Below are positions 2,204 through 38,746 of a stretch of DNA of 57,252 nt, one piece after another (the first letter of the stretch is position 1; every line of letters begins with the position of its first letter). The notes under the pieces are model-generated. The model was given only the letters and a program-made list of their open reading frames with translations. It made no database searches and was not told where the DNA came from. Made by a program: the position numbers and the translations under genes. Origin of the DNA: Patescibacteria group bacterium (GTDB lineage Bacteria > Patescibacteriota > Gracilibacteria > UBA1369 > JAHKBB01); contig JBDRDX010000011.1 of the NCBI GenBank assembly GCA_043820285.1, forward strand, positions 1 through 57,252, read 5' to 3'.

Positions 2204-5200
2204 CTAGACTTTAAGAATCTTCTCAATCTCATCTTTCAACATTTCATCGACATTTACCAAAAATGGCACTTTAATTCGCTGTAATCTATCCTTGTTTTGA
2301 ATGTGAATTTCAACTTCTCTATCACCCCTATTTTCCGTAAGCAGGCTTTTAAGCTCACTTAAAATTGTTTTGTCTGTATCTAAGTCAACGGAAATAATAA
2401 ACGGTTCTATCCTCTGAGTTTCCTCCATGTTATCAATATCAAAATCTTCAATTTCTTGCACATTCTCACCTTCCTTTGGCTTCAGACCCTCTATTGTGGC
2501 AAACTGACGAGCAATTTTCTCATTCGGATCAAAAGTGCCGGTATTTTTTGCACGATCGATCATACTTTCAATAGAAACAGCTTGTGCGGAATTTGGAGTG
2601 AACTGGAGAGCGCCTCGCCTAAAATCCAACTTCCCCTCCATAATAACGACATTATCCTCCTGGAATAAATCCCCATACTGTCGATATGTCCTAGGGAAAA
2701 TAATAATCTCAAACCTTCCGGTAGGATCTTCACATGTCCCATACATCATATATTCTCCACTACGAGTCAAAACTTTCTTCAGACCCGTTATTAAGCCGCC
2801 CATCTTGATGTTTTTGCCAATGTCTTTCCGGGTTAATTTTTCTGCAAGAATAACCTTTTTGCTAAAATGTTTTTTCAAACCCCGAAGTGGATGGTTAGAT
2901 ACATACATACCAAGATATTCTTTTTCCCACTTCAACCTCTCCATAAAACTGGCGGGTTCCACACTCTTTAACTGAAAATGAGCATCATCATCCGGGGAGT
3001 CATCCGTTATAATCCCAAAAATATCAGTCTGTCCCTTTGCGGAAACATCTTGATGAATCTTTGAGTACTGCGTAATTTCTTCTAAACTTTCCGAGATATG
3101 CTTGCGCTCTCCGAGTTTATCCAACGCCCCCGATCGAGAAAGAGCCTCCATAAGTTTCTTGTTTAGAAGATGGCTCGGGACTCGTTCCGCAAAATCCTTC
3201 AAACTTCCAAATGCCCCCTTGTCATCCCTAATCGCCAAAATCTCCTTCACCGGTCCCTCGCCAATTCCCTTTATCGCGGATAGCCCAAAGCGAATAGTTT
3301 TGTCATCAACCACTGTGAACTTCGAGAAAGACTCGTTAATTGACGGAGGAAGTACAGAAATTCCCATCTCTTCACATTCATTTATTTCATGCACAACCTT
3401 ATCCGTGTTTCCAAAATCAGCACAGAGTAGGGAAGTCATAAACTCAATCGGATAGTGAGCCTTGAGATACGCTGTGTGATAAGCGATCAGCGCATAACAG
3501 GTTGCGTGGGCCTTATTAAATCCATATCCGGCGAAAGGCTCGATCACTTTATCAAACATTTCTTCAGCAAATTTCAATGAATGACCCTGCGACTTCGCCC
3601 CTTCCGCAAATTTTTGACGCTGCAGTGCAAGTAGCTCCGGGATCTTCTTTCCCACAGCTTTTCTAAGAATGTCAGCTTCACCAAGGGAAAATCCTGCAAA
3701 TTCTCGCGCTATTTGTAAAATTTGCTCTTGGTAAATAGCAACACCATTAGTCTCTTTCAAGATAGTTTCAAGGGACTTGTGAATATACTTTATGGATTTT
3801 GGATTATGCTTTCCTTTTATATAACTCGGGATCCATTCCATCGGCCCGGGTCTATACAGCGAAACCATCGCAATAATATCCTCAAACTGAGTTGGTTTAA
3901 GATCCTTTAGATACCTTCTCATTCCGGCGGATTCCAGCTGGAACACTCCCGTTGTATCTCCTTTTTGAAGCAGCTCAAAAGTCTTCTTGTCATCCATTTT
4001 GATATTCTCCAAGTCAACATCTTCGCCTTGCGTTCTCTTGACAATCTTTATTGTTTTTTCAATGATTGTAAGGTTTCGAAGTCCAAGAAAGTCCATTTTT
4101 AAAAGTCCAATATCTTCAATCGGCTTCATAGAATACTGAGTGACCACGTCATTTTCACTGCCTGGAGCCCTCTGAAGCGGAGCATAGTTTACAAGCGGCT
4201 CCTCCGAAATCACTACGGCACATGCGTGAGTCCCCGCATGACGTACGGTCCCTTCCAACTTTATAGCATTGTCTAAAAGAACCTTTGTCTTTGGCTCATT
4301 CTCATATGCCTGTCTTAATTCAGGATTGTTTTTTACAGATTCAAAAAGAGGCGCATGCTTCCCCAAAACAGGTTGAGGAACAAGCTTCGCAATTCTATCA
4401 ACATCACCATATGAGTGTCCAAGAGCACGACCAACATCTCTCACGACAGCCTTCGCCGCCATCGTTCCAAAAGTGATAATCTGCGCGACATTTTCGCGGC
4501 CGTACTTTTCGATCACATAATTTAAAACCTCATCACGCCTGTCATCCGCAAAATCGATATCAATATCCGGCATCGATACACGTGAAGGATTCAAAAATCT
4601 CTCAAAAATCAGCCCATATTCAAGCGGATCAACCTCCGTTATTCGGAGCGAATACGCAATAATCGAACCGGCCGCACTTCCACGCCCGGGACCGACTGTA
4701 ATCTTGCTGTCTTTCGCAAACTTCACAAAGTCATGAACAATAAGAAAATAGGTGTCGAAACCCATTTTGTGAACCATCTCAAGCTCAAAGTCCAGCCTTT
4801 CTTTCGCCTCTTTAAGTTTCTCGTTTTTGTACCTGTTTTCCAGACCTTCTTCACAAAGTTCTCGAAGATAATCTCCAGGATCGATGCTGTTTGGAGTATG
4901 GTAAGCCGGTAAAAGATTCTGACCGAACTCAAGCTCAACATTGCACCTGTCAGCAACCTTTACCGCATTCTCCAAAACTTCCGGATGACCCTTGAAAGAC
5001 TCCTGTATCTCAGATGCAGACTTCAGAGAAAAATCACCAAGATATCTCATCCTTCCCTCATCGGTAACATTTGTCCCGGTTTGAATACAAAGAAGGATGT
5101 CATGAGCTTCCGCGTCTTCGGGATTTATGTAATGAGTATCATTCGTAGCAACGACGGGTATATTGTGCTTTTTCCCAATCTCAAAAATCGCATTGTTTAC

Positions 5201-5758
5201 AGTTCTTTGCTCCTCAATTAAATCTCCATGATCTTGAACCTCAAGGAAGAAATTATCCTTCCCGAAAATTTCCTGCAATTCAAGAGCCCTTTCCGCGGCC
5301 TTATCTGTCCCCTCCGTCAAAACGGCCCTGGGAACAATTCCCATAAGACAACCGGAAAGGGCGATAAGCCCTTTGTGATGCGCCTTCAAAAGCCCCTCGT
5401 CGACCCTGGGTTTGTAATAAAAACCTTCAAGATTTGCCTGAGTAACAAGCTTCAACAGATTTTGATAGCCCTCATTTGTCTCCGCCAAAAGTGTCATATG
5501 ATAGGGCTTGATGTCGACTCCGGGAGTCTTATCAAACCTGGTACGCGGAGCAATATAAATCTCGCATCCAATAATAGGCTTAATCCCTTCTTTTTTCGCG
5601 GCCTTATAAAACTCAATGGCTCCATATAGATTTCCGTGATCCGTAAGTGCAATGGCAGGGGACCCCTGTCCTTTCGCTTTTCTCACAATATCAACAGGCT
5701 TGCCAAGTCCATCTAGGGGACTGTAGTGAGAGTGGACATGTAGATGGACAAAAGACAT
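2204..5758 (-). CDS. dnaE: DNA polymerase III alpha subunit
   Basis: PHP domain start MSFVHLHVHSHYSPLDG and a full-length polymerase core of about 1184 aa. Start set at ATG 5758 because the track's longer ORF (to 5821) runs into the tRNA-Leu gene. Confidence 0.95.
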   Translation of the reverse strand: MSFVHLHVHSHYSPLDGLGKPVDIVRKAKGQGSPAIALTDHGNLYGAIEFYKAAKKEGIKPIIGCEIYIAPRTRFDKTPGVDIKPYHMTLLAETNEGYQNLLKLVTQANLEGFYYKPRVDEGLLKAHHKGLIALSGCLMGIVPRAVLTEGTDKAAERALELQEIFGKDNFFLEVQDHGDLIEEQRTVNNAIFEIGKKHNIPVVATNDTHYINPEDAEAHDILLCIQTGTNVTDEGRMRYLGDFSLKSASEIQESFKGHPEVLENAVKVADRCNVELEFGQNLLPAYHTPNSIDPGDYLRELCEEGLENRYKNEKLKEAKERLDFELEMVHKMGFDTYFLIVHDFVKFAKDSKITVGPGRGSAAGSIIAYSLRITEVDPLEYGLIFERFLNPSRVSMPDIDIDFADDRRDEVLNYVIEKYGRENVAQIITFGTMAAKAVVRDVGRALGHSYGDVDRIAKLVPQPVLGKHAPLFESVKNNPELRQAYENEPKTKVLLDNAIKLEGTVRHAGTHACAVVISEEPLVNYAPLQRAPGSENDVVTQYSMKPIEDIGLLKMDFLGLRNLTIIEKTIKIVKRTQGEDVDLENIKMDDKKTFELLQKGDTTGVFQLESAGMRRYLKDLKPTQFEDIIAMVSLYRPGPMEWIPSYIKGKHNPKSIKYIHKSLETILKETNGVAIYQEQILQIAREFAGFSLGEADILRKAVGKKIPELLALQRQKFAEGAKSQGHSLKFAEEMFDKVIEPFAGYGFNKAHATCYALIAYHTAYLKAHYPIEFMTSLLCADFGNTDKVVHEINECEEMGISVLPPSINESFSKFTVVDDKTIRFGLSAIKGIGEGPVKEILAIRDDKGAFGSLKDFAERVPSHLLNKKLMEALSRSGALDKLGERKHISESLEEITQYSKIHQDVSAKGQTDIFGIITDDSPDDDAHFQLKSVEPASFMERLKWEKEYLGMYVSNHPLRGLKKHFSKKVILAEKLTRKDIGKNIKMGGLITGLKKVLTRSGEYMMYGTCEDPTGRFEIIIFPRTYRQYGDLFQEDNVVIMEGKLDFRRGALQFTPNSAQAVSIESMIDRAKNTGTFDPNEKIARQFATIEGLKPKEGENVQEIEDFDIDNMEETQRIEPFIISVDLDTDKTILSELKSLLTENRGDREVEIHIQNKDRLQRIKVPFLVNVDEMLKDEIEKILKV

Positions 5759-5779
5759 ATTTTGAACAAGTTTTAATAA

Positions 5780-5865
5780 TGGTGGGCGAAGAGAGACTTG
5801 AACTCTCACGGGTTTCCCCACTAGTTCCTAAGACTAGCGCGTCTACCAAATTCCGCCATTCGCCC
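5780..5865 (-). tRNA. tRNA-Leu, anticodon UAG, type II with long variable arm, CCA encoded
   Basis: Reverse complement folds by hand. Acceptor GGGCGAA/TTCGCCC; anticodon stem CTAGT/ACTAG with loop CTTAGGA; variable arm TGGGGAAACCCGT; T arm GAGAG-TTCAAGT-CTCTC; A73 then CCA. 86 nt. Confidence 0.9.
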
Positions 5866-5936
5866 TAATTTTCAAAGCAGGGAGACGATAACAAAAACAC
5901 TTCAAAAAATCAAAGTAAAAAAAGTCAATTAAAACC

Positions 5937-5965
5937 TTGACAAATAGGTAACTGTTGTATATATT
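5937..5965 (+). promoter_or_regulatory. Sigma70-like promoter candidate (TTGACA-17-TATATT)
   Basis: Perfect -35 at 5937-5942, 17-nt spacer, TATATT at 5960-5965. Lies upstream of the 6073 gene. Confidence 0.35.
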
Positions 5966-6012
5966 ACATCACCTACGGTGAAGAAACGAGATTGTGCAAT
6001 ATATTTTCGAGC

Positions 6013-6041
6013 TTGACAATGGATATGCAAATCACTATCTT
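6013..6041 (+). promoter_or_regulatory. Second sigma70-like promoter candidate (TTGACA-17-TATCTT)
   Basis: Perfect -35 at 6013-6018, 17-nt spacer, TATCTT at 6036-6041. About 30 nt upstream of the ATG at 6073. Confidence 0.35.
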
Positions 6042-6072
6042 GAAGTCACTTCGAAATTAACAACTTAACCTT

Positions 6073-7149
6073 ATGAGTAGTACAGGCGCTAAAAAAACGG
6101 CACAGTCGCTGGGAAATGTAAACCTTCCGGATATCGTGGAGGACATCTTCATGGTTCTTACAAATAAGGAAAAAGAAGTCATTGTTAAGAGATTTAGCTT
6201 GGACAATGGCCCAAGACAGACTCTGGAAAGAATCGGCCAGAAGTTTTCTGTCACTCGTGAGAGAATTAGACAAATTGAGAAGATTGCTTTAGCCAAACTT
6301 CGCAGGACTGTTGAGAATACAAAGCTCAACCTGGTTAATGATATTGCGAATCAAATCATTGAAGAGAATGGCGGAGTGATGCTTGATACGAAGCTGATTA
6401 GCGCGATCCTGAATTGGATTGAATCAGACAGTGAAATAGACGCGCACATCATTCGGCTCGCTTTGAATATCAACAAAGATCTGGAGCGGATAGAAAAGAC
6501 AAACGTACTTCATCCATTCTGGAAATATAAAGATGTCAAAATAAGTGACATCAATTTGATCCTGAACACGGGAGTTTCGATATTGAAGAAGAAAGGCGAT
6601 GTTGTCGATGCCGATAAGCTTGGAGGACAAATTCAACAGACGTTAAAAGAAAGTGACAACTCGTTCTCTATCCACATACTTACTTCAGCAATGGAAGCAG
6701 ACAAGAGAGTAAAGAGAACCAAAGAAGGATTCGGCCTAATGACATGGAGACACATCAATCCAAAGAGTATCCGCGATAAAGCTTATATTGTTCTTAAAAA
6801 AGCCAATTCTCCTCTGCACTTCGTAGAGATTGCAAATAGAATTACAGAATCCGGATTCGATAAGAAAGTTGTTACAACTCAAGCGGTTCACAACGAACTT
6901 ATCCGATACGACCAATTCGTACTTGTGGGTCGCGGACTATATGCACTAAAAGAATGGGGATACGAAAAAGGAACAGTTGCAGACGTTATCGAAACTCTTC
7001 TTGCAAAGAAAAGTCCAATGACAAAGCAAGAAATCATCGAGGGTGTACTGGAACAAAGAAGAGTAAAAAAAGGTACAATCTCTCTAAATCTTCAAAAGAA
7101 CCCTAAATTCGAAAGAGTGGGACGTGCGGTTTACAAGCTTTCGAAATAA
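6073..7149 (+). CDS. Sigma-70 region-4-like HTH protein with C-terminal HARE-HTH/winged-helix modules (not a complete sigma factor)
   Basis: N-terminal LTNKEKEVIVKRFSL...QTLERIGQKFSVTRERIRQIEKIALAKLRR is a typical sigma region 4.2. No region 2 is present. C-terminal KAYIVLKKANSPLHFVEIANRI...VLVGRGLYALKEWGY resembles the HARE-HTH of RNAP delta subunit. Confidence 0.7.
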   Translation: MSSTGAKKTAQSLGNVNLPDIVEDIFMVLTNKEKEVIVKRFSLDNGPRQTLERIGQKFSVTRERIRQIEKIALAKLRRTVENTKLNLVNDIANQIIEENGGVMLDTKLISAILNWIESDSEIDAHIIRLALNINKDLERIEKTNVLHPFWKYKDVKISDINLILNTGVSILKKKGDVVDADKLGGQIQQTLKESDNSFSIHILTSAMEADKRVKRTKEGFGLMTWRHINPKSIRDKAYIVLKKANSPLHFVEIANRITESGFDKKVVTTQAVHNELIRYDQFVLVGRGLYALKEWGYEKGTVADVIETLLAKKSPMTKQEIIEGVLEQRRVKKGTISLNLQKNPKFERVGRAVYKLSK

Positions 7150-7164
7150 AAGTATATTTCAACC

Positions 7165-7479
7165 ATGGAAGACTGTGTTTTTTGCAAAATACGTGATGGC
7201 GAAATCCCATCTCCAAAACTTCATGAAGATGAACACTGCTACGCTGTAAACGACATAAATCCAAAAGCCAAAACTCACATCCTTATTATCCCCAACAAGC
7301 ACATCCATTCTATTGCAAAAATGGAGAAAGGAGACGAAACTCTGATAGGTCATATGGTAAAAATCGCACGTGATCTCGCGGCGGAGAGAGAACTCCGGGG
7401 CTACAAACTAGTGTTCAATGTCGAAAAACATGGAGGACAGGAAATCTTCCATATCCACATGCATTTATTGAGCGATTAG
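7165..7479 (+). CDS. HIT-family nucleotide hydrolase (HinT-like)
   Basis: 104 aa. CVFCKI near the N-terminus and histidine triad HIHMHLL near the C-terminus. Confidence 0.85.
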   Translation: MEDCVFCKIRDGEIPSPKLHEDEHCYAVNDINPKAKTHILIIPNKHIHSIAKMEKGDETLIGHMVKIARDLAAERELRGYKLVFNVEKHGGQEIFHIHMHLLSD

Positions 7480-28931: not shown

Positions 28932-31004
28932 CTACCTTCTTTTTATGCTGAAATAAAGTCCAGATACAAACAGCGCAATAACAACGATCCAAAGAATTTC
29001 CGGTCCCGTCTGAGCGGGAAAGTATGTATAGTATGAACCAGGATTGAGGGGATCTTGAACCGGATTAAGCCCTTGAAATGTTTCTGTGACAAATGGAGTG
29101 GATTCAACGATCTCGCTCATTTGCGGACTTTCATTTCCAAGGCTGTCGATAGCAGTTACCGCAAAATAATGTGGAGTCCCGTTCCGAAGATTTGGAATAT
29201 ACCAAGTTGGTGAATTTGCGAACGTATCTACCGCATACGTAAGTAAATTCGGGTCAGTTCCATAATAAATTCTGTAATTTTTGATTCCAGCCGGGCTTTC
29301 TGCCACCTTCCAAATCAAAGTTACCTTTGAATCAGATGGGATAACAGAGACACCGATCACATTAAATCCTCCTTCAAGGGCACCGCCATGCAACACGGTT
29401 ACGGTTCCTTGGCCGTCATATAAAGCTTCATTTCCAAGAGCATCGGTAAGGGAGACCGTAACATCATACGCGCCCGCCTTCGCGGGAGCATTCACAGTCC
29501 CGGTATAAGTCGAAGCCGAAGCGGTAGGCTGTAATGTAACACTTTCAGTACCAATCTTTACAATTACAGAAGTTAATCCCTCTTCAGTATGAACCGTAAC
29601 AGTCAGTGAAGACCCGGGCTCAACATCTCCTATAGGAAGAATCTCAACACTATCTACAAGAGGAACAGAAGCGTCTATAACAATAGTCACCGGATCGACC
29701 TCTGCAATAATTTCAAAATTTTCATCCAAAAGTACCGCCAAAAGGGTATGTTCTCCCTCCGCAAGCGGAGTTGTTTCAAATGTGTAATTTCCATCTGCAT
29801 CAGCTTCCGTGAATCCAAATTCCTCATCGTTATCATAAAACCCGATAGTGAATCCGGGAGGAGCACTTCCAGCCAAAGTTTGAACGGTCTGGCTATACGT
29901 AGCGGGAAGAGGGGAAGTTAAAGTAAAATTATACTCACCCGCAATTTGTGCTCCCACAGACGGTTTAACCCCGGTCCCAACAGTAACATCTATCATCCCC
30001 GTCACACTGAGATCGTCAATATCGATGGCTTCTATAGAAAACAACCCTTCCTGAAGGAATTTAAGTCCAAGACTATATGTATGAGATCCGAGGTCATCCT
30101 TTGTAAACACGTAATCTACTTCAGGCAGCTCAACCATATTTCCATTTTCGCCGGGAGCGGATATATGGACAGTACCGGTATAGTCTGTGACCACCTTGTC
30201 ACCAGCATTATATGCCGTGACAGTGAATGAGATATTTTTATTCAAAGCAACGGGACTTTTAATACCCTCAATGGCTAGATAACTAACGGTGGAAGCGTCC
30301 GCTACCAAATTGTCATAATCTCCACCGGCATACGAAAGTCTGGAATATTCGGTTTCGAAATAAACTTCCGGTCTATTCTTCAAAACTTTTCCCGAAGTCG
30401 TATCAAACACAGAGTAAACAGAAACTCCAGGCTCATTTGACTCTACATTGAACAGAACTTCTCCAGTCGAACTTGTATAAGGCTTCCCGCCAACTGTGGA
30501 AACCGTATCTTCTTCACGACTAGAGATAACTGTGACCTCATGACCTCTTACAGCATTTCCATACTGATCCTTGAGCTTAACCGTCAAAAGAATCGGATTG
30601 TCCAAAGCCGCAGTTCTTTGCGCCGCATTTGCGGTGGATTTGGCGGAAGAAACTTCGTCCGGATAAACGGTAAAAGTACTCTCATCGCCAAGAACATTGT
30701 CATACTTGGAATAAACTGTGTATAAACCGGCTTTTGTAAGATCCTCTCCAAAAATATCTAAACTGGCGCTACCCGTGCCGTCTGTTTTAACTTCATAAAC
30801 TTCCTTTGTTCCATCCGGATGTTCAAGGAAAAGAGAAAGGTTTCTATTAGGCAAAGTGTTACCTGTTTCTAATGTGGTTCCAAATCCGGCAATGGTATCT
30901 ATAGCAGTAACATCCGGAGCAAGTGAAGCCGCGTATGCGGTACCCGCAGTCATAAATAGAGTGACTGCGGACAGAAATGAAATTTTCATAAACTTCGAAA
31001 ACAT
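28932..31004 (-). CDS. Secreted, C-terminally membrane-anchored surface protein with Ig-like (Big_1-type) and fibronectin-III-like domains
   Basis: Signal peptide MKISFLSAVTLFMTAGTAYA. LTVKLKDQYGNAVRGHEVTVIS is Big-like. KVTLIWKV...YRIYYGTDP...HYFAVTAIDSLGNES is FN3-like. C-terminal TM then KRR. Confidence 0.7.
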   Translation of the reverse strand: MFSKFMKISFLSAVTLFMTAGTAYAASLAPDVTAIDTIAGFGTTLETGNTLPNRNLSLFLEHPDGTKEVYEVKTDGTGSASLDIFGEDLTKAGLYTVYSKYDNVLGDESTFTVYPDEVSSAKSTANAAQRTAALDNPILLTVKLKDQYGNAVRGHEVTVISSREEDTVSTVGGKPYTSSTGEVLFNVESNEPGVSVYSVFDTTSGKVLKNRPEVYFETEYSRLSYAGGDYDNLVADASTVSYLAIEGIKSPVALNKNISFTVTAYNAGDKVVTDYTGTVHISAPGENGNMVELPEVDYVFTKDDLGSHTYSLGLKFLQEGLFSIEAIDIDDLSVTGMIDVTVGTGVKPSVGAQIAGEYNFTLTSPLPATYSQTVQTLAGSAPPGFTIGFYDNDEEFGFTEADADGNYTFETTPLAEGEHTLLAVLLDENFEIIAEVDPVTIVIDASVPLVDSVEILPIGDVEPGSSLTVTVHTEEGLTSVIVKIGTESVTLQPTASASTYTGTVNAPAKAGAYDVTVSLTDALGNEALYDGQGTVTVLHGGALEGGFNVIGVSVIPSDSKVTLIWKVAESPAGIKNYRIYYGTDPNLLTYAVDTFANSPTWYIPNLRNGTPHYFAVTAIDSLGNESPQMSEIVESTPFVTETFQGLNPVQDPLNPGSYYTYFPAQTGPEILWIVVIALFVSGLYFSIKRR

Positions 31005-31150: not shown

Positions 31151-32044
31151 ATGAAAAAGACTAAAGCTATATTCCTGGACGGGAAATTTGTCCCCTGGGA
31201 TAAAGCCAAAATCCACATTTTGACTCACACACTGCATTACGGAAGCGGAGTGTTTGAAGGTATACGTTTCTACAATACAGAAAAAGGACCTGCGGTATTT
31301 AAGCTTAAGGAGCATATGGCAAGGCTGATAAGTTCAGCAAAAGTGTTTGAGTTAAAAATTCCATATACGGAAAAGGAGCTGGCAAAAATAACTTTAAAAC
31401 TGATAAAAAAGAGCGAATTAAAGAAAGGGTACATCAGACCAATCGTATTTCTTGGAGCGGATAAAATAGGGCTAAACCCAAAAGGCTGTTCTGTCCATGT
31501 AGCGATAATAGTCGCGCCATTTGAAAGTTATCTGGGTGACAAAAGGATCAAAGTGGGAATTTCCAAATACAGAAGATTCGACCCGAGTGAGACGAATATT
31601 AAAGCAAAAGCATGCGGGCATTACGTAAATTCTATTCTGGCAAGCATGGATGTGCGTAATAGGGGATTCGATGAAGCCGTTTTACTAGACAGAGACGGAA
31701 AGATTGCGGAAGGACCGGGAGAAAATATTTTCATAGTGAAAAACGGAAAAATCATTACCCCAAAGGCGAAAAACATTTTACCGGGCATTACAAGAAAATG
31801 CGTTAAACGCATAGCAAAAGACAATAATATTAAATTCTTGGAAAAGATTATAAGCGTAAACGGATCGAAAAACGCTGATGAAATATTTCTTGCGGGGACA
31901 GCGGCAGAAATAACGGAGGTGGAAAAGATAGATAACAAAAAACTTCCCGCAAAAAACCCAGTAACAAAATTAATCAAATCCACATACCTTGATGCCGTAC
32001 ACGGCAGAATCAAAAAATACAATAAATGGCTCTCATATGTATAA
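31151..32044 (+). CDS. ilvE: Branched-chain amino acid aminotransferase (class IV PLP fold)
   Basis: 297 aa. HTLHYGSGVFEGIRFY, a lysine-containing KAKACGHY region, GITR. Confidence 0.85.
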   Translation: MKKTKAIFLDGKFVPWDKAKIHILTHTLHYGSGVFEGIRFYNTEKGPAVFKLKEHMARLISSAKVFELKIPYTEKELAKITLKLIKKSELKKGYIRPIVFLGADKIGLNPKGCSVHVAIIVAPFESYLGDKRIKVGISKYRRFDPSETNIKAKACGHYVNSILASMDVRNRGFDEAVLLDRDGKIAEGPGENIFIVKNGKIITPKAKNILPGITRKCVKRIAKDNNIKFLEKIISVNGSKNADEIFLAGTAAEITEVEKIDNKKLPAKNPVTKLIKSTYLDAVHGRIKKYNKWLSYV

Positions 32045-33587
32045 AAAAATATTCACAACATTACTCACAACAATTATAACCGCATTATTTCTCGTCCCGG
32101 CCGCATACGCAGAAGGTGTGATAGAAGAAGAAACAGAGGAACCAATAATAAAAGCTGTGATTCAGGCGGATACGAGCGTGGAAACCGGAAGAAACATCAT
32201 ATTTGATGCTTCAAACTCATATTTGAAAGACGTAGACAAAGAAACTGTGCGGTACGAATGGAGTTTCGGAGACGGTAATGCAGACGAAGGGATAGAGGTC
32301 GTACACACATATAGAGATCCACAACTGTATAATGTGGCTCTTTCAATTCGCCAAAACGGAGAATTAATTGCTGAAGCCGCTCATCGAGTGCATGTATATA
32401 GAAAATTGACCATACTTTTAACCGACAAGACCGAAGAACAAAATAGAATACAAGGCATAAAAAATTACGCATCGGATGAACAGGTGTTCATCGAAGAAAT
32501 CGAAAGTTTTGGGAGCGCATCGGAGTTTATCTCGGAGGAAATTTTGGCCAAAAGACTGAAAGAAAATACAAAAATTGTAGATAAAGCAAAACAGATAATA
32601 GTCTGGACAAACGGAAATGCAGGACTCAATGCTCTTTCCAGATTTCTTAAAGAAAGCAACCAGAAATTAACGGAAAAGGTGGTAATTGTCATAGCAAGCG
32701 ACATAGGAATAACTTCTTCCAGAATAGAAAGGCAATTCCCACTTCTGCAGCCGAAAAAAATTCTCATAATCACGGAATCGGCCATATACCCTCTTATCGA
32801 AAGCACATCAGAGGAAAAATTCATGGAAAAACTGGAAAAAGAAGGGTACCCACACAAGGTAATCGACAGTAAATCCGGAAGACTCAATCCATGGAATTTC
32901 ATGTCATATTTCGTGAATTTCCTAATTGAAAGTGGAATCCCGGACAACACAGTCATTCTCATACTACTACTCCCAATAATTGCAACCGTAGTGGCATTTA
33001 TGCGGCAGTTGGTTGGAATAACAACATTCGGTATTTACTCTCCATCAATTATCACTCTTGCATTACTCATACTGGGACTAAAATTCGGACTTATTACATT
33101 TATGATAGTACTGGCAATGGGAGGTGCGGCGAGACACGCGCTTCGCAAAACGAGACTGCTCTTCATACCTAAAATGGCGATAGTTCTGACATTTGTGTCG
33201 CTGACAATTTTCGCACTACTTATTATAACTATCTACTTTAACTGGTTTGATGCAGAGTTTATCGCACTTGCAATATTCCCAATCCTCATAATGAGTACGC
33301 TCTCGGAAAAATTCATCAACGCACAGAGCGAAAGAGGATTCTTATCCGCAATGGTACTGATGGGAGAAACGATTTTGGTGTCAATAATTGCATACTTCGT
33401 CGTAGGAGGGGCAATAGACCTTGGCTTGTTCACACTACAATGGGAATTTGTTAAAAACCTAATGCTGGCATATCCGGAACTGATCTTCTTGATACTCATA
33501 ATAAATATCCTTCTCGGGCGCTGGACGGGACTCAGGATCCTGGAATACGTCAGATTCAGAGAAATATTAAGACATATTGAAGAATAA
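32037..33587 (+). CDS. Signal-peptide PKD-domain protein fused to a C-terminal 7TM module of the 7TM_transglut type
   Basis: Start at ATG 32037 (MYKKIFTTLLTTIITALFLVPAAYA). PKD motif IIFDASNS...YEWSFGDGN...HTYRDPQLYNVALSI. The 7TM block carries the hallmark VGITTFGIYSPSIITLAL and terminal GRWTGLRILEYVRF. Confidence 0.7.
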   Translation: MYKKIFTTLLTTIITALFLVPAAYAEGVIEEETEEPIIKAVIQADTSVETGRNIIFDASNSYLKDVDKETVRYEWSFGDGNADEGIEVVHTYRDPQLYNVALSIRQNGELIAEAAHRVHVYRKLTILLTDKTEEQNRIQGIKNYASDEQVFIEEIESFGSASEFISEEILAKRLKENTKIVDKAKQIIVWTNGNAGLNALSRFLKESNQKLTEKVVIVIASDIGITSSRIERQFPLLQPKKILIITESAIYPLIESTSEEKFMEKLEKEGYPHKVIDSKSGRLNPWNFMSYFVNFLIESGIPDNTVILILLLPIIATVVAFMRQLVGITTFGIYSPSIITLALLILGLKFGLITFMIVLAMGGAARHALRKTRLLFIPKMAIVLTFVSLTIFALLIITIYFNWFDAEFIALAIFPILIMSTLSEKFINAQSERGFLSAMVLMGETILVSIIAYFVVGGAIDLGLFTLQWEFVKNLMLAYPELIFLILIINILLGRWTGLRILEYVRFREILRHIEE

Positions 33588-33589
33588 CC

Positions 33590-35962
33590 ATGCTTTTTAA
33601 AACTCACGGAATTTTAGGCATCAACGCGAGAAACCTTTTATATATTAGGCCGTATAATAAAAAAAAGGCGGTCGAGCTCGCCGACGACAAGATCAAGACA
33701 AAAAAGTTCTTGGAGGCTCGTGATATTCCAGTTCCAAAGATGTATGGAGTAATAAAGTCTAAAGAAGAACTCGAGAAGTTTGAGATGGAAAAACTTCCAA
33801 ATAGCTTCGCCCTAAAACCAAATTTTGGGTACGGAGGTGAGGGGATTATCCCAATAATTAACAAAAGAGGAAGTCACTGGATAAAGGTTAATGGAGAAAA
33901 AATAACCAAAGAAGAACTGAATGATCAAATTGTAGATATATTGGATGGACGATTCTCTATTTCAAACGTTTCTGACTCTGCATTTTTTGAGCAACTTATA
34001 ATAAGTCATGATTCCATAGGAAAATTTGCGTACGAAGGACTTCCGGATATACGTGTGGTGGTCCACAATCTCATCCCGGTAATGGCAATGCTCAGAATTC
34101 CCACAAAAGAATCCGGTGGACGTGCAAATCTGCATCAAGGAGCTATAGGCGCCGGAATAGACATAGCGAAAGGAGAAGTCACATACGTGGCGTATAAACA
34201 CAAGATTATTGATGAGATCCCGGGAGTTGGAAAGATAAAAGGAACAAAGATCCCATTCTGGGACGAAATACTGATGATTGCTTCAAAAGCACAACTTGCG
34301 ACAAACCTTGGATATCTCGCAGCAGACATAGCTCTAGACAAAACATCGGGACCACTGCTCATAGAGATAAACGCGAGAGCGGGACTGGGCGTGCAAATAG
34401 CGAATTTAGCACCACTGCGTAGAAGATTGGAGCGAATAGAAGGCGTAAAAGTCACTACACCGGAGAAGGGGATTAGGATTGCGAAGGATATGTTCGGAAA
34501 TGTGATGGAAAAAGAACTCGCTCACAAAACGGGCAAGGAAATCATAGGTGCAGAAGAGGAAATAGAAATTATCTTGGGTGAAGGCACTGTAAAAATAAAA
34601 GCCGCAATAAACACAAATTATGAAAGGACTGTAATAGACGAACAGTTCGCGGATGAAATGAAATTACTCGAAAATCACGATGCATACGATGATGAGAAAT
34701 CCACACTGAAACTAAAATTTTCGATCCGCAGCAAAAGAACTCAAACAATCGCGGATGTAGAACCATTAAAAAATACAAAATATAAAATAATCATAGGAAA
34801 CAGGGATCTCAAAGATTTTCTCATAGACCCATCCAAATCACCTGTGAAAGACATTCAAATCTCAAAAGAATCCAAAAGAATAAAGAAAGAATTGAATTAC
34901 TACGAAATAGATCAACAAATAGTGGATGTTTCAAGTAAATTGAAGTTGTTATACCATTTGCGTCCAACAAATTTGGAAGAAGAGAAAAAGAAGTTCTTTA
35001 AAGATTTCAAATACAATCCGCAATTCAAGTATCCGGAACTTAGATTTGATCCAAGCGAGGTGTACGAAGAGCTCGAGAAGATCGAAACAGACGACACCGC
35101 ACTTGGCAAAGTATTCCAAGCAAAAGTAGAGGAACTCAAAGGGCAGGTAAGCCTAATGGAAAGCATAGGAAAAGACGAATTTACGGAGAAATCCATAGAC
35201 CTGTTTGGCAAACCGGGAAGAGAAGTGCTGGAGGAAGTTGAAGCTAAAATGAAAAAAATTGACTCCATCCCAAAAGACATGGAAGGAACGATGAAAGCTG
35301 ATGAAGTAAAAAAGAGGTTTGATGAAGTGTTCAAAAAATACAAATTAAAAAATTGGAAAGCAAAACTCAAAGATGACTTGGTAGCGGACTGTACAGCCGG
35401 AAAAAGAAACAGGCTATTACTGAGAAAAGACGCAACTTTCAGCGAAGAACGAATAAAAGCGCTTATAGTCCACGAAATTGAAACTCACATTCTTACGGCG
35501 GAAAACGGAAAGAATCAACCATACGAAATATTTAACAGAGGATTGGCGAACTACATGGAGACTCAAGAAGGTCTCGCAATATACAATGTGACAAAACGCC
35601 TGCATTATGGAGACAAACAAAACTACCGCGCATTCGCGCTGGTCATCGCTATCGCAGAAGCACAAGAGAAATCATTCGTAGAAGTTTTTGAAAAGTTACT
35701 TCAAGGAAATATTCCATTAGAAAGAGCATTTAGAACAGCGATAAAAGTAAAAAGAGGACTCACAGACACAAGTAAACCGGGGTGTTTCACAAAAGACCTC
35801 ATCTACTATACCGGCATGAGGAAGATTGAAAAATACGTAGAAGAGAAAGGCGACATAAAAGATCTGTACATGGGGAAATTTTCGCTGGAGGACCTGGAAA
35901 CAGTAAAAAGAATGGAAGGGATAAAACCGCCAAAATATCTCCCCGAATGGCTATCGATGTGA
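33590..35962 (+). CDS. Three-module fusion: RimK-related ATP-grasp ligase (alpha-L-glutamate ligase-like), degenerate retropepsin-like module, DUF1704/MATCAP-like metallocarboxypeptidase (QEGLA motif protein)
   Basis: aa 1-290: GILGINARNLLYIRPYN, FALKPNFGYGGEGI, LLIEINARAGLGVQIAN. aa about 315-420: IGAEEEIEIILGEGTVKIKAAINTNYERTVIDE...YKIIIGNRDLKDFLIDP. aa about 445-790: YHLRPTNLEEEKKKFF, HEIETH (35471-35488), METQEGLAIYN. Confidence 0.8.
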   Translation: MLFKTHGILGINARNLLYIRPYNKKKAVELADDKIKTKKFLEARDIPVPKMYGVIKSKEELEKFEMEKLPNSFALKPNFGYGGEGIIPIINKRGSHWIKVNGEKITKEELNDQIVDILDGRFSISNVSDSAFFEQLIISHDSIGKFAYEGLPDIRVVVHNLIPVMAMLRIPTKESGGRANLHQGAIGAGIDIAKGEVTYVAYKHKIIDEIPGVGKIKGTKIPFWDEILMIASKAQLATNLGYLAADIALDKTSGPLLIEINARAGLGVQIANLAPLRRRLERIEGVKVTTPEKGIRIAKDMFGNVMEKELAHKTGKEIIGAEEEIEIILGEGTVKIKAAINTNYERTVIDEQFADEMKLLENHDAYDDEKSTLKLKFSIRSKRTQTIADVEPLKNTKYKIIIGNRDLKDFLIDPSKSPVKDIQISKESKRIKKELNYYEIDQQIVDVSSKLKLLYHLRPTNLEEEKKKFFKDFKYNPQFKYPELRFDPSEVYEELEKIETDDTALGKVFQAKVEELKGQVSLMESIGKDEFTEKSIDLFGKPGREVLEEVEAKMKKIDSIPKDMEGTMKADEVKKRFDEVFKKYKLKNWKAKLKDDLVADCTAGKRNRLLLRKDATFSEERIKALIVHEIETHILTAENGKNQPYEIFNRGLANYMETQEGLAIYNVTKRLHYGDKQNYRAFALVIAIAEAQEKSFVEVFEKLLQGNIPLERAFRTAIKVKRGLTDTSKPGCFTKDLIYYTGMRKIEKYVEEKGDIKDLYMGKFSLEDLETVKRMEGIKPPKYLPEWLSM

Positions 35963-35963
35963 A

Positions 35964-37121
35964 TTATATCTTCTTTCCTTCTCCTTGTCCCCACCTCATA
36001 TTATCCGCGGCCTGCTCTTTACCTTTTCCAACATTTTTTATCACAATCAAAGAGATGTCATCAGCCTGCAATGCATTGCCAACAAACCTGGAAAATTCAG
36101 TGGCTGTATGATAAGAAATTCCCTCCGGAGAATATTCCGCTGCAAAACGTTTGATATTTTCAATTAACCGGGAAAGTCCAAACATTTCTTCCTGCTCGTT
36201 CTTTGCCTCCACAATCCCATCGGTATACAAAACCACTACATCTCCTACATTCAACTTCAACTCCTGCTCTTTAACAATTTTTGAATTATCCGGAACCATC
36301 CCTAGAGCTATACCTCCGGCCTTAATGGATTCACATTCTCCACTGTCAGCTCTATATACAAGAAGGTATTCATGCCCGGCGCCAACATATGTCATCTTTT
36401 GAGCTTCGTGATCCCAACTGAGCACCACCATTGTCATAAACATGGTGGATCGAATACGAGACTTGAGCTGTTTATTTACGCTCACAACAATGTCGTAGAT
36501 ATTATTTCTAAGCTCGGAAAAAATAGAAACAAGCGTATGAACCATAGTCATCACAAGAGCGGCAGGCACTCCGTGGCCTGTTACATCACCTATATACATA
36601 AGGGTTTTCTTTCCTCCATCGAAGTCAACAAAATCAAAGTTGTCACCACCAACCTCTACAGCAGACCTGGTCTTGGCAACCACCTCAAGCCCCGGAACAA
36701 CAGGCGGTTTTTCAGGCAAAATATCAGTTTGCAGCCGAGCGGCAACACTTAGTTCTTCCGCCATGCGTTTCCCTTCCTTCACAGTTCCGGAGATTTTCGA
36801 AAGACTCTCTGTAATCTTATTGAAGAAAAAAGCTAAAATGCCAATTTCATCAGTACGTTTTGTGTACACCTTTTTGAAAGACCTGCCGGTAACCATGGCT
36901 TTCATCTGTTTCAGGATGGATCTCATTGGCTTCACAACAACAAAGTAGACCCAGAATAAATAAAGTACCAAAACCGCCCCGATGATAATTGCAGCCAACT
37001 CAACCGATATAAAAGGTTCTTTAACATATCCCAGGTAATACACAAACCCCGCGATCAGCCCAAGCAGGATCAAAAAGTGGATGATAAGCTTCCAAATCAG
37101 ACTTTGTTTTATGAACGTCAT
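35964..37121 (-). CDS. Membrane-bound HAMP-domain PP2C (SpoIIE/RsbU-type) serine phosphatase
   Basis: Two N-terminal TMs. HAMP region VKPMRSILKQMKAMV...DEIGILAFFFNKITESL. PP2C motifs GGDNFDF and YIGDVTGHGVPAALVMT, plus LYTDGIVEA and ADDISLIVIK. Confidence 0.85.
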   Translation of the reverse strand: MTFIKQSLIWKLIIHFLILLGLIAGFVYYLGYVKEPFISVELAAIIIGAVLVLYLFWVYFVVVKPMRSILKQMKAMVTGRSFKKVYTKRTDEIGILAFFFNKITESLSKISGTVKEGKRMAEELSVAARLQTDILPEKPPVVPGLEVVAKTRSAVEVGGDNFDFVDFDGGKKTLMYIGDVTGHGVPAALVMTMVHTLVSIFSELRNNIYDIVVSVNKQLKSRIRSTMFMTMVVLSWDHEAQKMTYVGAGHEYLLVYRADSGECESIKAGGIALGMVPDNSKIVKEQELKLNVGDVVVLYTDGIVEAKNEQEEMFGLSRLIENIKRFAAEYSPEGISYHTATEFSRFVGNALQADDISLIVIKNVGKGKEQAADNMRWGQGEGKKI

Positions 37122-38746
37122 TTTTTGTTTAGTGATGTTTTTATATGTCTTAGTATGTTCTTTGGTATTTTGTTTTCAATCAAGGGAAATACCTTTTTTG
37201 ATACTACCTTATCGTCACATAAAAGTAAATGAGCCAAGTATTCACATGACGAGTTGTAATCCAAATTCGCAAGAATATCTATAATCTTTGTTTTAACTTT
37301 CTCCGGCAACAAATCCGAACTGAGAGCTTTTGAAAATATTGCAAAAACGCCACTGTGACCCTTTTGCATCAATATTTCTACAGCATCTTCTTTATCGTGA
37401 ACCGAGGAATTTTCGTCAAAAAGCAAAGCTACCGCCGAACGGGTATATTGCTTTCGGGATCGAAGCACATACCCCATCATAAATACGGCGGTAATAGCCA
37501 AAGCCGCATTTGTTGTCAGTAAAAGCATTTCACCCTTAAACAAAAATTGCAGAACAACGATTATGGACATTCCGATAATCGCGGAGAACGGCCTGACAAA
37601 ACCATCTAAAAACTCCCTGCTCAATTCTCTGGACTTATCGGGCAGTATATAAAAAGCCGAATGATAGGCATTTTTAAAAATCGCATTCGTCATTTCCGTA
37701 TTGTTCTTTGCAAATACACCCGTTAAGTATGAGAAATTCAGTGTAAGTCCAAGAACACTTAAAAAAGCAACCATAGGATATAAAAGTATGCTTGAAACAA
37801 CTCCCAGACTTGCAATAATCCTGCTTCCGGCAAAAACCTGTATGAATAAAGCGGACCCACCAAACAGAATCTGCAGCGATCCCAACGCGTGTACGAGAGC
37901 GTGCTCATAAGAACTCACCGTTTGAGGCAAGTCCATATCCGACATAACAGACGCGGAAATCGATTTGGTGTATTGAAATTCCATCAGGCTGAAAAACAGC
38001 CACTGAAATAGAACTATAAACACCAACGTAGCCAAAAACGGGGTCTTTCTCGACCTTCCAATCCCTTTAACAAGAATGTCTATGAATGTGGATTTTTTCT
38101 TTTGGGCCTCAGAAATTTCTTCTGAATATCCCCCCCCCAAATACCTATTAGCCAGTGAAAGCGCCGGCACAATCATCAAAATCGAAAAAATCCACAAATA
38201 CAAAAAATTATGAGGCTCAACAATCTCAGATAACGTGGCTAAAACAATACCGGCCAGAAGAATTGCAACCGTATCAGCAGATTCTATAACAGGGAAAGTC
38301 CTCTGACTCGAAAGCGGAGTGAAGAATCTCTCGACAAACGCGGCGATGAGGATATTAAGCTGATACAAAAAGAATGATTCAGCGAATATCAAAACCGGAA
38401 AGATGAAAACATTACTATTTTTCATCAAAAGCGTCGCAAGCAGAATTACAACAGACGCTGTAAGAACCGTCCAAATGATGAGGTGGGAATTCTTAAATCT
38501 ACTAACCAATCTGGTATAAACAGTCCCGCTTGCCAGGATAAAAAGACCATTGGCCATAAAAAGAAATGGTAAATACTTGATCCCATAATTACTAACCAAA
38601 AGAGCAATTATGACAGTCCATCCCACGACAAACCCAAATCTATAAAAGAACTTCACAAAGAAGCACGCACAAACACGCGATAATTCGTTCGACTTCACAT
38701 TCAAAAATCGGGTCAGAAACGTTTCTTTGGCTCTTTTACTAACCAT
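37118..38746 (-). CDS. Polytopic membrane protein (MFS- or ATP/ADP-translocase-like transporter fold) with a cytoplasmic HEAT-like C-terminal repeat region
   Basis: About 11-12 predicted TM segments. C-terminal helical repeats (EDAVEILMQKGHSGVFAIFSKALSSDLLPEKVKTKIIDILANL). The family call is tentative. ATGA overlap with the PP2C gene. Confidence 0.35.
   Translation of the reverse strand: MVSKRAKETFLTRFLNVKSNELSRVCACFFVKFFYRFGFVVGWTVIIALLVSNYGIKYLPFLFMANGLFILASGTVYTRLVSRFKNSHLIIWTVLTASVVILLATLLMKNSNVFIFPVLIFAESFFLYQLNILIAAFVERFFTPLSSQRTFPVIESADTVAILLAGIVLATLSEIVEPHNFLYLWIFSILMIVPALSLANRYLGGGYSEEISEAQKKKSTFIDILVKGIGRSRKTPFLATLVFIVLFQWLFFSLMEFQYTKSISASVMSDMDLPQTVSSYEHALVHALGSLQILFGGSALFIQVFAGSRIIASLGVVSSILLYPMVAFLSVLGLTLNFSYLTGVFAKNNTEMTNAIFKNAYHSAFYILPDKSRELSREFLDGFVRPFSAIIGMSIIVVLQFLFKGEMLLLTTNAALAITAVFMMGYVLRSRKQYTRSAVALLFDENSSVHDKEDAVEILMQKGHSGVFAIFSKALSSDLLPEKVKTKIIDILANLDYNSSCEYLAHLLLCDDKVVSKKVFPLIENKIPKNILRHIKTSLNKK

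Follow-up and report, generated by a model that had tools for sequence, protein, structure and literature searches.

An ATP-grasp ligase, a decayed retropepsin-like domain and a MATCAP-type carboxypeptidase in one protein of candidate-phyla bacteria, and the glutamate tail of its membrane partner

Why would a bacterium join, in one polypeptide, an enzyme of a kind that adds amino acids to protein C-termini and an enzyme of a kind that takes them off? The question is raised by a gene at positions 33,590 to 35,962 (+ strand) of a 57,252-nucleotide stretch of Patescibacteria DNA (contig JBDRDX010000011.1 of GenBank assembly GCA_043820285.1; this whole stretch is called the window below). The open reading frame (ORF) runs uninterrupted through 790 codons, and domain scans and AlphaFold models divide its 790-residue product, which we call the fusion protein, into an ATP-grasp ligase domain, a degenerate retropepsin-like domain and a MATCAP-type metallocarboxypeptidase domain. 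Directly upstream lies a gene for a membrane protein with a seven-transmembrane (7TM) domain and two glutamates as its last residues. The answer that we favour, and to which we give about an even chance, is that the fusion protein both writes and erases the glutamate tail of this 7TM partner, its retropepsin-like domain being a dead remnant.

Polyglutamylation of protein C-termini is central to microtubule biology in eukaryotes. The known bacterial cases are limited to ribosomal protein S6 and one Legionella effector (PMC12239564). The family to which the fusion protein belongs provides a testable candidate for a third bacterial case, this time on a membrane protein, with the ligase and a MATCAP-type peptidase joined and the proposed substrate encoded alongside. 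New here are the decay of the retropepsin site where a MATCAP domain is present, and the glutamate tail of the 7TM partner. Comparing retropepsin-based with MATCAP-based variants of the system should show which part acts as the eraser, and bacterial MATCAP homologs in a defined functional context may shed light on the specificity of the human tubulin detyrosinase/deglutamylase family and on where that family came from.

Domain structure of the fusion protein

The earlier note on this DNA, made from its letters alone, had divided the protein into the same three parts and knew of no characterisation of such a fusion. Its three domain calls were correct, as shown by Pfam and NCBIfam scans, alignment to structures in the PDB, Foldseek searches with AlphaFold models, and profile–profile alignment with hhalign; the three-domain arrangement is no chance resemblance. 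As for previous work, no paper in the literature that we searched, which did not include Iyer et al. 2009, names both MATCAP and ATP-grasp, and DUF1704, QEGLA and TIGR02421 are mentioned there only in two unrelated papers. The ATP-grasp and 7TM families concerned were reportedly defined by Iyer et al. 2009 (Mol Biosyst).

The N-terminal domain (residues 4-290; positions 33,599 to 34,459, + strand) is an ATP-grasp domain of the ATPgrasp_ST/TIGR02291, or RloC-like, type. The Pfam family ATPgrasp_ST (PF14397) matches residues 14-284 over model positions 2-277 of 278 (E = 3e-65; 220.6 bits against a gathering cut-off of 31.4), and the NCBIfam family TIGR02291, described as an alpha-L-glutamate ligase-like protein of RloC type, matches residues 4-290 (E = 2e-81). 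The TIGR02291 score of 273.8 bits lies under the equivalog cut-off of 314.2, so the fusion protein is a relative of that family and not an equivalog. The RimK family itself, TIGR00768, is much further off, with 46.5 bits for a cut-off of 143.4. The assignment of residues 1-290 to the RimK clade in the earlier note therefore stands as far as an ATP-grasp domain with its Mg/ATP residues is concerned, but not for RimK proper, whose place is taken by the ATPgrasp_ST/RloC-like type. In a profile search of the PDB the domain gave marginal sequence matches to RimK (E = 0.05), and the structural search was clearer: its best matches, found by Foldseek with the full-length model, are RimK (including the RimK-S6 complex, 5zk6) and ArgX/LysX. 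The alignment begins at RimK residue 86, so that the fusion family lacks the N-terminal domain of RimK, whose first ~85 residues have no counterpart.

The key residues of the ligase domain are K76, R155, the N180-L-H-x-G184 motif, D246, E259 and N261. When the family profile is aligned with RimK structures (5zct and 4iwx), D246, E259 and N261 coincide with D248, E260 and N262, the Mg ligands of E. coli RimK, and the DIR and NLHxG motifs match as well. Both the lysine of the KP..G loop (K76) and the D...E-x-N triad (D246, E259, N261) that are expected for binding of Mg and ATP are thus present, and by this alignment we take the predicted RimK-like amino-acid ligase site to be intact.

At the other end of the protein, residues 441-789 (positions 34,910 to 35,956, + strand) form a metallocarboxypeptidase domain of the MATCAP/DUF1704/QEGLA family, about where the earlier note had put it (residues ~445-790). 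PF08014 (MATCAP, formerly DUF1704) matches residues 469-789 with an E-value of 2e-63 (215.3 bits; cut-off 27), and TIGR02421, the 'QEGLA motif protein' family, matches residues 441-789 with an E-value of 5e-64, its 217 bits falling short of the equivalog cut-off of 338.65. Judged by these scores, the fusion protein is not a member of the RimK, TIGR02291 or TIGR02421 equivalogs. The sole sequence matches in the PDB are structures of human MATCAP (7z5g, 7z5h and 7z6s; E = 3.5e-18), to which it is ~25% identical over ~190 aligned residues. In this alignment the metal-binding and catalytic motif HEIETH (H628-E629-x-x-x-H633; positions 35,471 to 35,488, + strand), which the earlier note had located exactly, lies opposite HEIGTH of MATCAP, and T-Q-E-G-L-A lies opposite T-E-E-G-L-A; the HExxxH residues are invariant in the fusion family. 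The QEGLA motif itself (residues 659-663; positions 35,564 to 35,578, + strand) thereby aligns with the EEG(LA) motif of MATCAP/TMCP1, whose second glutamate is the predicted third metal ligand (PMC10499314); the corresponding residue is E660. With H628, E629, H633 and the downstream E660 all in place, the HExxxH/Glu site predicted from the alignment is intact. The eukaryotic enzymes of this family trim acidic -EE(Y) tails by taking off C-terminal tyrosine and glutamate, and they also cut back chains of polyglutamate (PMC10499314).

The nine residues K76, R155, D246, E259, N261, H628, E629, H633 and E660 are invariant in 44 close homologs, and of 69 diverse full-length representatives, which reach down to 29% identity, 68 have all nine. 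Such conservation in the sequences indicates that both predicted catalytic sites are under selection. The full-length AlphaFold model has a mean predicted local distance difference test score (pLDDT) of 82.8, and with it Foldseek retrieves MATCAP (7z5g, E = 8e-14) as well as RimK, ArgX and LysX (E ~1e-8). Its predicted template modelling score (pTM) is 0.49, for which reason we discarded the arrangement of the domains that it displays. What these nearest structures have in common is a target at the C-terminus of a protein, either glutamate or an acidic tail: RimK on the tail of S6, ArgX and LysX on the C-terminal glutamate of LysW, and MATCAP on tubulin tails. The fusion protein has no signal peptide.

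Between the two enzymes lies a domain of the retropepsin-like RimB/RloA (PF05618) lineage (residues ~315-416; positions 34,532 to 34,837, + strand), and here the similarity is more remote. Residues 285-447 of the window protein, scanned alone, have no direct Pfam match apart from a spurious one to HECT (E = 0.03). When each homolog was scanned in turn, 22 of 33 matched retropepsin families weakly over the middle segment. An AlphaFold model of residues 296-418 (pLDDT 86.6) has as its best PDB match the Pseudomonas periplasmic aspartic peptidase RloA (9g58, E = 1e-5), followed by the retropepsin domains of DDI1, RloA2, the DUF785 protein Lpg0085 and HIV protease. With hhalign, the profile of the middle domain aligns to 14 PF05618-positive domains over 104 columns (probability 99.6%, E = 2e-24); against the single RloA sequence the same program aligned only the C-terminal IDPSK motif (probability 2%). 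The resemblance to retropepsins that the earlier note had seen is therefore real.

So is the loss of the catalytic aspartate that it had read from the sequence. At the position of the retropepsin D-T-G-A motif, or D-[TS]-G-A, the window protein has N341-T-N-Y344 (positions 34,610 to 34,621, + strand), and the engineered D48N form of RloA is catalytically inactive (PMC12239564). The substrate-binding residues have gone too. Among RloA mutations, those of R114 and R137, which coordinate polyglutamate, impair its cleavage most (PMC12239564); in alignments of the three-domain family their equivalents, as mapped by inference from residue spacing in Legionella RloA, are an invariant serine (Ser371) and a variable residue. 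Both arginines are invariant in a second group of Patescibacteria proteins, which consist of the ATP-grasp and PF05618 domains alone (~440 residues), have more than 3,000 relatives and are encoded behind a bare 7TM gene.

To compare the catalytic motif in the two groups we used 158 two-domain proteins (119 relatives of one protein and 39 diverse representatives) and 297 three-domain proteins. D[TS]GA is kept in all 119 relatives and in 21 of the 39 representatives, which makes 140 of 158, and in just 3 of the 297 three-domain proteins; the remainder of the latter comprises 62 with D[TS]G but no alanine, 145 with the aspartate followed by other residues, and 87 with no aspartate. These counts are most simply read as a transfer of the eraser role to MATCAP from the retropepsin of an ancestral two-domain protein, with the retropepsin fold retained as a structural element that perhaps serves dimerisation. 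All retropepsins dimerise. The earlier note had suggested a non-catalytic binding module: catalysis does appear lost in the window protein, but so do both of the arginines by which RloA binds polyglutamate, which weakens the case for a retained polyglutamate-binding module and makes a scaffold or dimerisation role at least as likely.

The family and its membrane partner

The fusion is not a singleton. The earlier note had suggested looking for the same domain order elsewhere, and we found at least 1,605 relatives in a word-indexed search and, in a scan of one genome per species, at least 549 genomes with a relative; each of those examined closely has a full-length fusion and belongs to Peregrinibacteria, Gracilibacteria or Absconditabacteria. 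The best 120 of the relatives are all ~775-813 residues long (mostly 785-810), have the same architecture and come from sources labelled Peregrinibacteria, Gracilibacteria or Patescibacteria; among the species genomes, the best 80 all have a full-length fusion. An exhaustive search extended the three-domain proteins down to 29% identity, in Absconditabacteria (SR1) and Gracilibacteria. This is a large family of one candidate-phyla lineage, annotated automatically, for example as 'tyrosine/phenylalanine carboxypeptidase domain-containing protein'. The diverse representatives also include MATCAP or ATP-grasp fragments that stand alone, and these could be either real split genes or gene-calling artefacts in genomes that use genetic code 25. 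Several distant Gracilibacteria/SR1 proteins (P0178, P0183, P0192, P0196, P0206 and others) have tryptophan at an otherwise invariant glycine, for example in NLAQW and EEWLA, which suggests that UGA was read as tryptophan (code 4) where glycine (code 25) was due.

The upstream gene (positions 32,037 to 33,587, + strand) encodes a signal peptide, a PKD domain (PF18911) and a 7TM_transglut domain (PF14402), with a weak match to the RloB family NF052267 (E = 1.5e-16). Its last codons, GAA GAA TAA (positions 33,579 to 33,587), close a C-terminus that reads ...RFREILRHIEE and that we propose as the acceptor, or substrate, tail (written as a peptide, ...EYVRFREILRHIEE), and its stop codon lies 2 nucleotides ahead of the ATG of the fusion gene. 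The window has 122 ORFs of 100 codons or more, and the 7TM gene alone among them codes for a terminal EE. We examined related loci from the best 80 of the species genomes that contain a relative. A homolog of the 7TM gene is located directly upstream on the same strand in 76 of them, and the remaining four have no upstream DNA, so the pairing holds in 76 of 76 assessable cases. All 76 of these upstream homologs end in EE, EEE or EEEE.

The glutamates persist at greater distances. Among distant loci, from SR1, Absconditabacteria and Gracilibacteria, five of five encode a 7TM partner with 2-8 glutamates at its end (...KKHFDSEEE, ...KKHFQEE, ...NSSGTEEEEE, ...DNDGAEEEEEEEE and ...DGDGSEEEEEE), and the residues ahead of the run vary by lineage, as these ends and the ...RHIEE of the window show. 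In total, a tail of 2-8 glutamates is found in 81 of 81 MATCAP-bearing loci that have a partner gene, and in none of six systems without MATCAP: the 7TM partners of four two-domain systems end in ...SSRKK, ...SSSKK, ...IPKKG and ...SSDKK, and the tail is absent from the two proteobacterial RloB proteins that we read, from Legionella and Aeromonas. In the sequences compared, then, a free, acidic and genetically variable oligo-glutamate C-terminus appears on the 7TM protein only where the carboxypeptidase domain is present. It is what the substrate of a RimK-like ligase and a MATCAP-type peptidase should show. The last residues of ribosomal protein S6 are likewise -EE.

Hydropathy, the distribution of positive charges and a gene fusion in an archaeon all predict that the C-terminus of the 7TM partner is cytoplasmic. 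The fusion is an unannotated 584-residue ORF on a plasmid of Halobacterium sp. DL1 (CP007061.1; positions 4164-5915 of locus L083), in which a 7TM_transglut domain is joined to an ATPgrasp_ST domain. This archaeal 'Rosetta stone' puts the ligase on the C-terminal, cytoplasmic side of the 7TM domain.

Known relatives and possible roles of the module

The closest studied system is the RloABC operon of Pseudomonas, the genetics of which were reported in 2025: RloA is a secreted retropepsin that cleaves polyglutamate, RloB a 7TM protein whose transglutaminase domain is inactive, and RloC an ATP-grasp protein (PMC12239564). A triple rloA mutant of P. aeruginosa is relieved of its defects when rloB or rloC is lost as well (PMC12239564), as a writer/eraser relationship predicts. 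The classical three-gene form is also carried by a Legionella plasmid. The window module has in common with RloABC the ATP-grasp family (PF14397/TIGR02291-like), the 7TM family (PF14402, NF052267) and the retropepsin lineage (RloA, 9g58), as well as the location of the ATP-grasp and 7TM genes in one operon. It differs in that the retropepsin, which in RloABC is a separate secreted protein, is joined to the C-terminal side of the ligase, carries no signal peptide and lacks both the catalytic aspartate and the polyglutamate-binding arginines; in that a MATCAP domain is added; and in the 7TM protein, which in the window has a PKD domain, no PF14400 match and an oligo-glutamate end, whereas Legionella RloB has an inactive transglutaminase domain and neither it nor Aeromonas RloB has the tail.

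RimK and RimB form another such pair, in which RimK modifies the C-terminus of S6 and RimB trims it (PMC12239564). What they share with the window module is that an ATP-grasp alpha-L-glutamate ligase as writer is paired with a retropepsin-like protease as eraser, and that the target ends in -EE; the differences, besides those of the ligase domain described above, are that the partner in the window is a membrane protein and that the proposed working eraser is a metallocarboxypeptidase. Together, the fusion and 7TM genes are an uncharacterised candidate-phyla variant of the RloABC/RimK-RimB kind of writer–eraser system. The two-domain Patescibacteria proteins, also uncharacterised, have the same first two domains in the same order (phmmer; hhalign E = 2e-24) behind a 7TM_transglut gene, but they lack MATCAP, retain both arginines and, for the most part, the canonical DTGA, and their 7TM partner is a bare membrane domain of ~220 residues with a basic C-terminus.

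Eukaryotes keep the ligase and the peptidase in separate proteins. MATCAP1/TMCP1 and TMCP2 (KIAA0895L and KIAA0895) share with the window protein PF08014, HExxxH and the glutamate of (E/Q)EG, and the TTL/TTLL ligases that oppose MATCAP are ATP-grasp enzymes too. Their substrate is tubulin, whereas in the window module no tubulin takes part, the ligase is of RimK/RloC type and not of TTL type, and ligase and peptidase are one polypeptide. The proteobacterial proteins named 'flavohemoglobin expression-modulating QEGLA motif protein' (TIGR02421) represent a second, different link between MATCAP and ATP-grasp: they have the MATCAP/DUF1704 domain, ~26% identical to that of the window, with other partner domains and with neither a 7TM gene nor a retropepsin. 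We looked at two, of 628-663 residues. The one on pSymB of Sinorhizobium meliloti is encoded between genes for an N-formylglutamate amidohydrolase and a glutathione-synthetase-like ATP-grasp protein (locus L085, positions 3403-7204), and the one on a plasmid of Vibrio sp. HDW18 (locus L084, positions 4110-6101) has an FGase-like N-terminal half.

How might the window module work? In the reading that we favour, the fusion gene and the 7TM gene would constitute a two-gene module, in which the free C-terminal -EE of the 7TM partner is extended with amino acids by the ATP-grasp domain, alpha-linked glutamate being the most probable, and the MATCAP domain takes the added residues off singly. Tail length would then be set by a writer and an eraser within one polypeptide. 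The dead retropepsin, having passed its eraser role to MATCAP, would serve as a scaffold or dimerisation element, and the state of the tail would probably tune an envelope-related function of the 7TM protein. We suggest more tentatively, and with somewhat less than even confidence, that a reversible 'tail code' on the 7TM proteins of Peregrinibacteria, Gracilibacteria and Absconditabacteria controls envelope function, and that modules of this kind may be the prokaryotic source of the MATCAP enzymes of the eukaryotic tubulin code.

Several points weigh against modification of the 7TM tail. The added residue need not be glutamate, since human MATCAP prefers tyrosine and phenylalanine. The correlation between tail and MATCAP comes from related genomes that are not phylogenetically independent, and beyond the close homologs it was read in just five distant MATCAP-bearing and six MATCAP-less loci; at one further distant locus with a three-domain gene (L093), the surrounding 5 kb contain no 7TM gene. 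The C-terminus of the 7TM domain is not free in the Halobacterium fusion, so the ATP-grasp/7TM pair must have had an ancestral function other than tail modification. D-T-G persists in about half of the close Peregrinibacteria homologs, in which the retropepsin may therefore still be active. The full-length model, with its low pTM, is uninformative about docking, and the scores of the ligase and peptidase domains are under the equivalog cut-offs of TIGR02291 and TIGR02421.

The same enzymes could instead serve other substrates. The ligase might polymerise a free peptide, such as poly-alpha-glutamate, for the 7TM protein to export or anchor and for MATCAP to degrade or size from its C-terminus, the EE tail being a primer or a mimic of the product. 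The Rlo study counts free polyglutamate among the substrates that periplasmic RloA might have, and this implies that the polymer is exported (PMC12239564). The lack of a free tail in the Halobacterium fusion fits a free polymer, as do the second ATP-grasp gene and, sometimes, the Mur-ligase-family gene that SR1/Absconditabacteria loci add, in the manner of peptide-polymer synthetases. We nevertheless think it unlikely: all the catalytic domains are cytoplasmic, which would turn synthesis and degradation of a free polymer into a futile cycle, and the hypothesis leaves unexplained why terminal oligo-glutamate is on the 7TM protein exactly where the cytoplasmic carboxypeptidase domain occurs. That last correlation is equally unexplained if the module modifies an envelope precursor, with the ligase charging a peptidoglycan stem peptide or another lipid-linked intermediate and MATCAP as the matching carboxypeptidase. 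This idea draws on the Pfam name of the ligase family ('sugar-transfer associated'), on the cell-shape and cell-wall-antibiotic phenotypes of Rlo mutants (PMC12239564) and on neighbouring genes: a class A penicillin-binding protein gene follows the two-domain relatives in four loci, a Mur-ligase-family gene is in or beside two of the five distant loci, and MurJ is encoded 3 kb downstream in the window. But such neighbours differ from locus to locus and may mark no more than a conserved genome order (just 27 of the 80 related loci have MurJ close by), and both enzyme domains have as their nearest structural relatives enzymes that work on protein tails, so that we consider an envelope precursor improbable.

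We give similarly little credence to the proposal that the module really acts on some other cytoplasmic protein whose C-terminus is acidic, such as S6, and that the EE tail of the 7TM protein docks the enzyme at the membrane or auto-inhibits it. The action of RimK and RimB on S6 offers a precedent (PMC12239564), and a pseudo-substrate tail would be conserved as well. However, the ligase lacks the N-terminal domain of RimK and scores far below the RimK cut-off, the fusion gene is strictly linked in an operon to the 7TM gene and not to ribosomal genes, and the variable number of terminal glutamates (2-8) suits a substrate better than a fixed docking motif. Modification of the 7TM tail is thus the reading that we retain, although the penicillin-binding protein, Mur-ligase-family and extra ATP-grasp genes beside relatives may leave room for a free-polymer or cell-envelope role.

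Other genes in the window and in related loci

Upstream of the 7TM gene, a branched-chain aminotransferase gene (positions 31,151 to 32,044, + strand), an IlvE equivalog with 368 bits against a cut-off of 279, overlaps the likely 7TM start codon (ATG at 32,037) by 8 nucleotides. The overlap suggests co-transcription, yet this pairing is seen in only 16 of the 80 related loci. We considered this class IV aminotransferase as a supplier of D-glutamate and rejected it, given its IlvE identity and its presence in so few loci. Further upstream, on the opposite strand, a 690-residue protein with several bacterial Ig-like/fibronectin-type repeats is probably a surface protein (positions 28,932 to 31,004, − strand).

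On the downstream side, a gene for a SpoIIE/PP2C-type phosphatase with weak sensor-kinase-like N-terminal matches (positions 35,964 to 37,121, − strand) faces the 3' end of the fusion gene in convergent orientation. Of the 80 related loci, 51 have it, which may represent conserved gene order and nothing else. Co-directional with it is a 542-residue ORF without Pfam or NCBIfam matches (positions 37,118 to 38,746, − strand), kept near the fusion gene in 43 of the 80. A 41-codon ORF lies directly downstream of the fusion gene in one Gracilibacteria locus (L087, positions 6343-6468).

In SR1/Absconditabacteria, extra genes are located between the fusion and 7TM genes (L086, 6446-8596; L094, 7462-8721; L095, 7502-8767; L088, 6604-7047). 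They code for a RimK-like or ATP-grasp_4 ligase, a Mur-ligase-family protein (in L086) and a GNAT acetyltransferase (in L088). The two-domain loci that we inspected (L089, L091, L092 and L096) have the 7TM gene, the ATP-grasp/retropepsin gene and then, in three of the four, a gene for an ATP-grasp_3 protein of 504-511 residues. YebC and RuvC precede this group, and the class A penicillin-binding protein gene is downstream in all four, which may point to a link with the cell wall.

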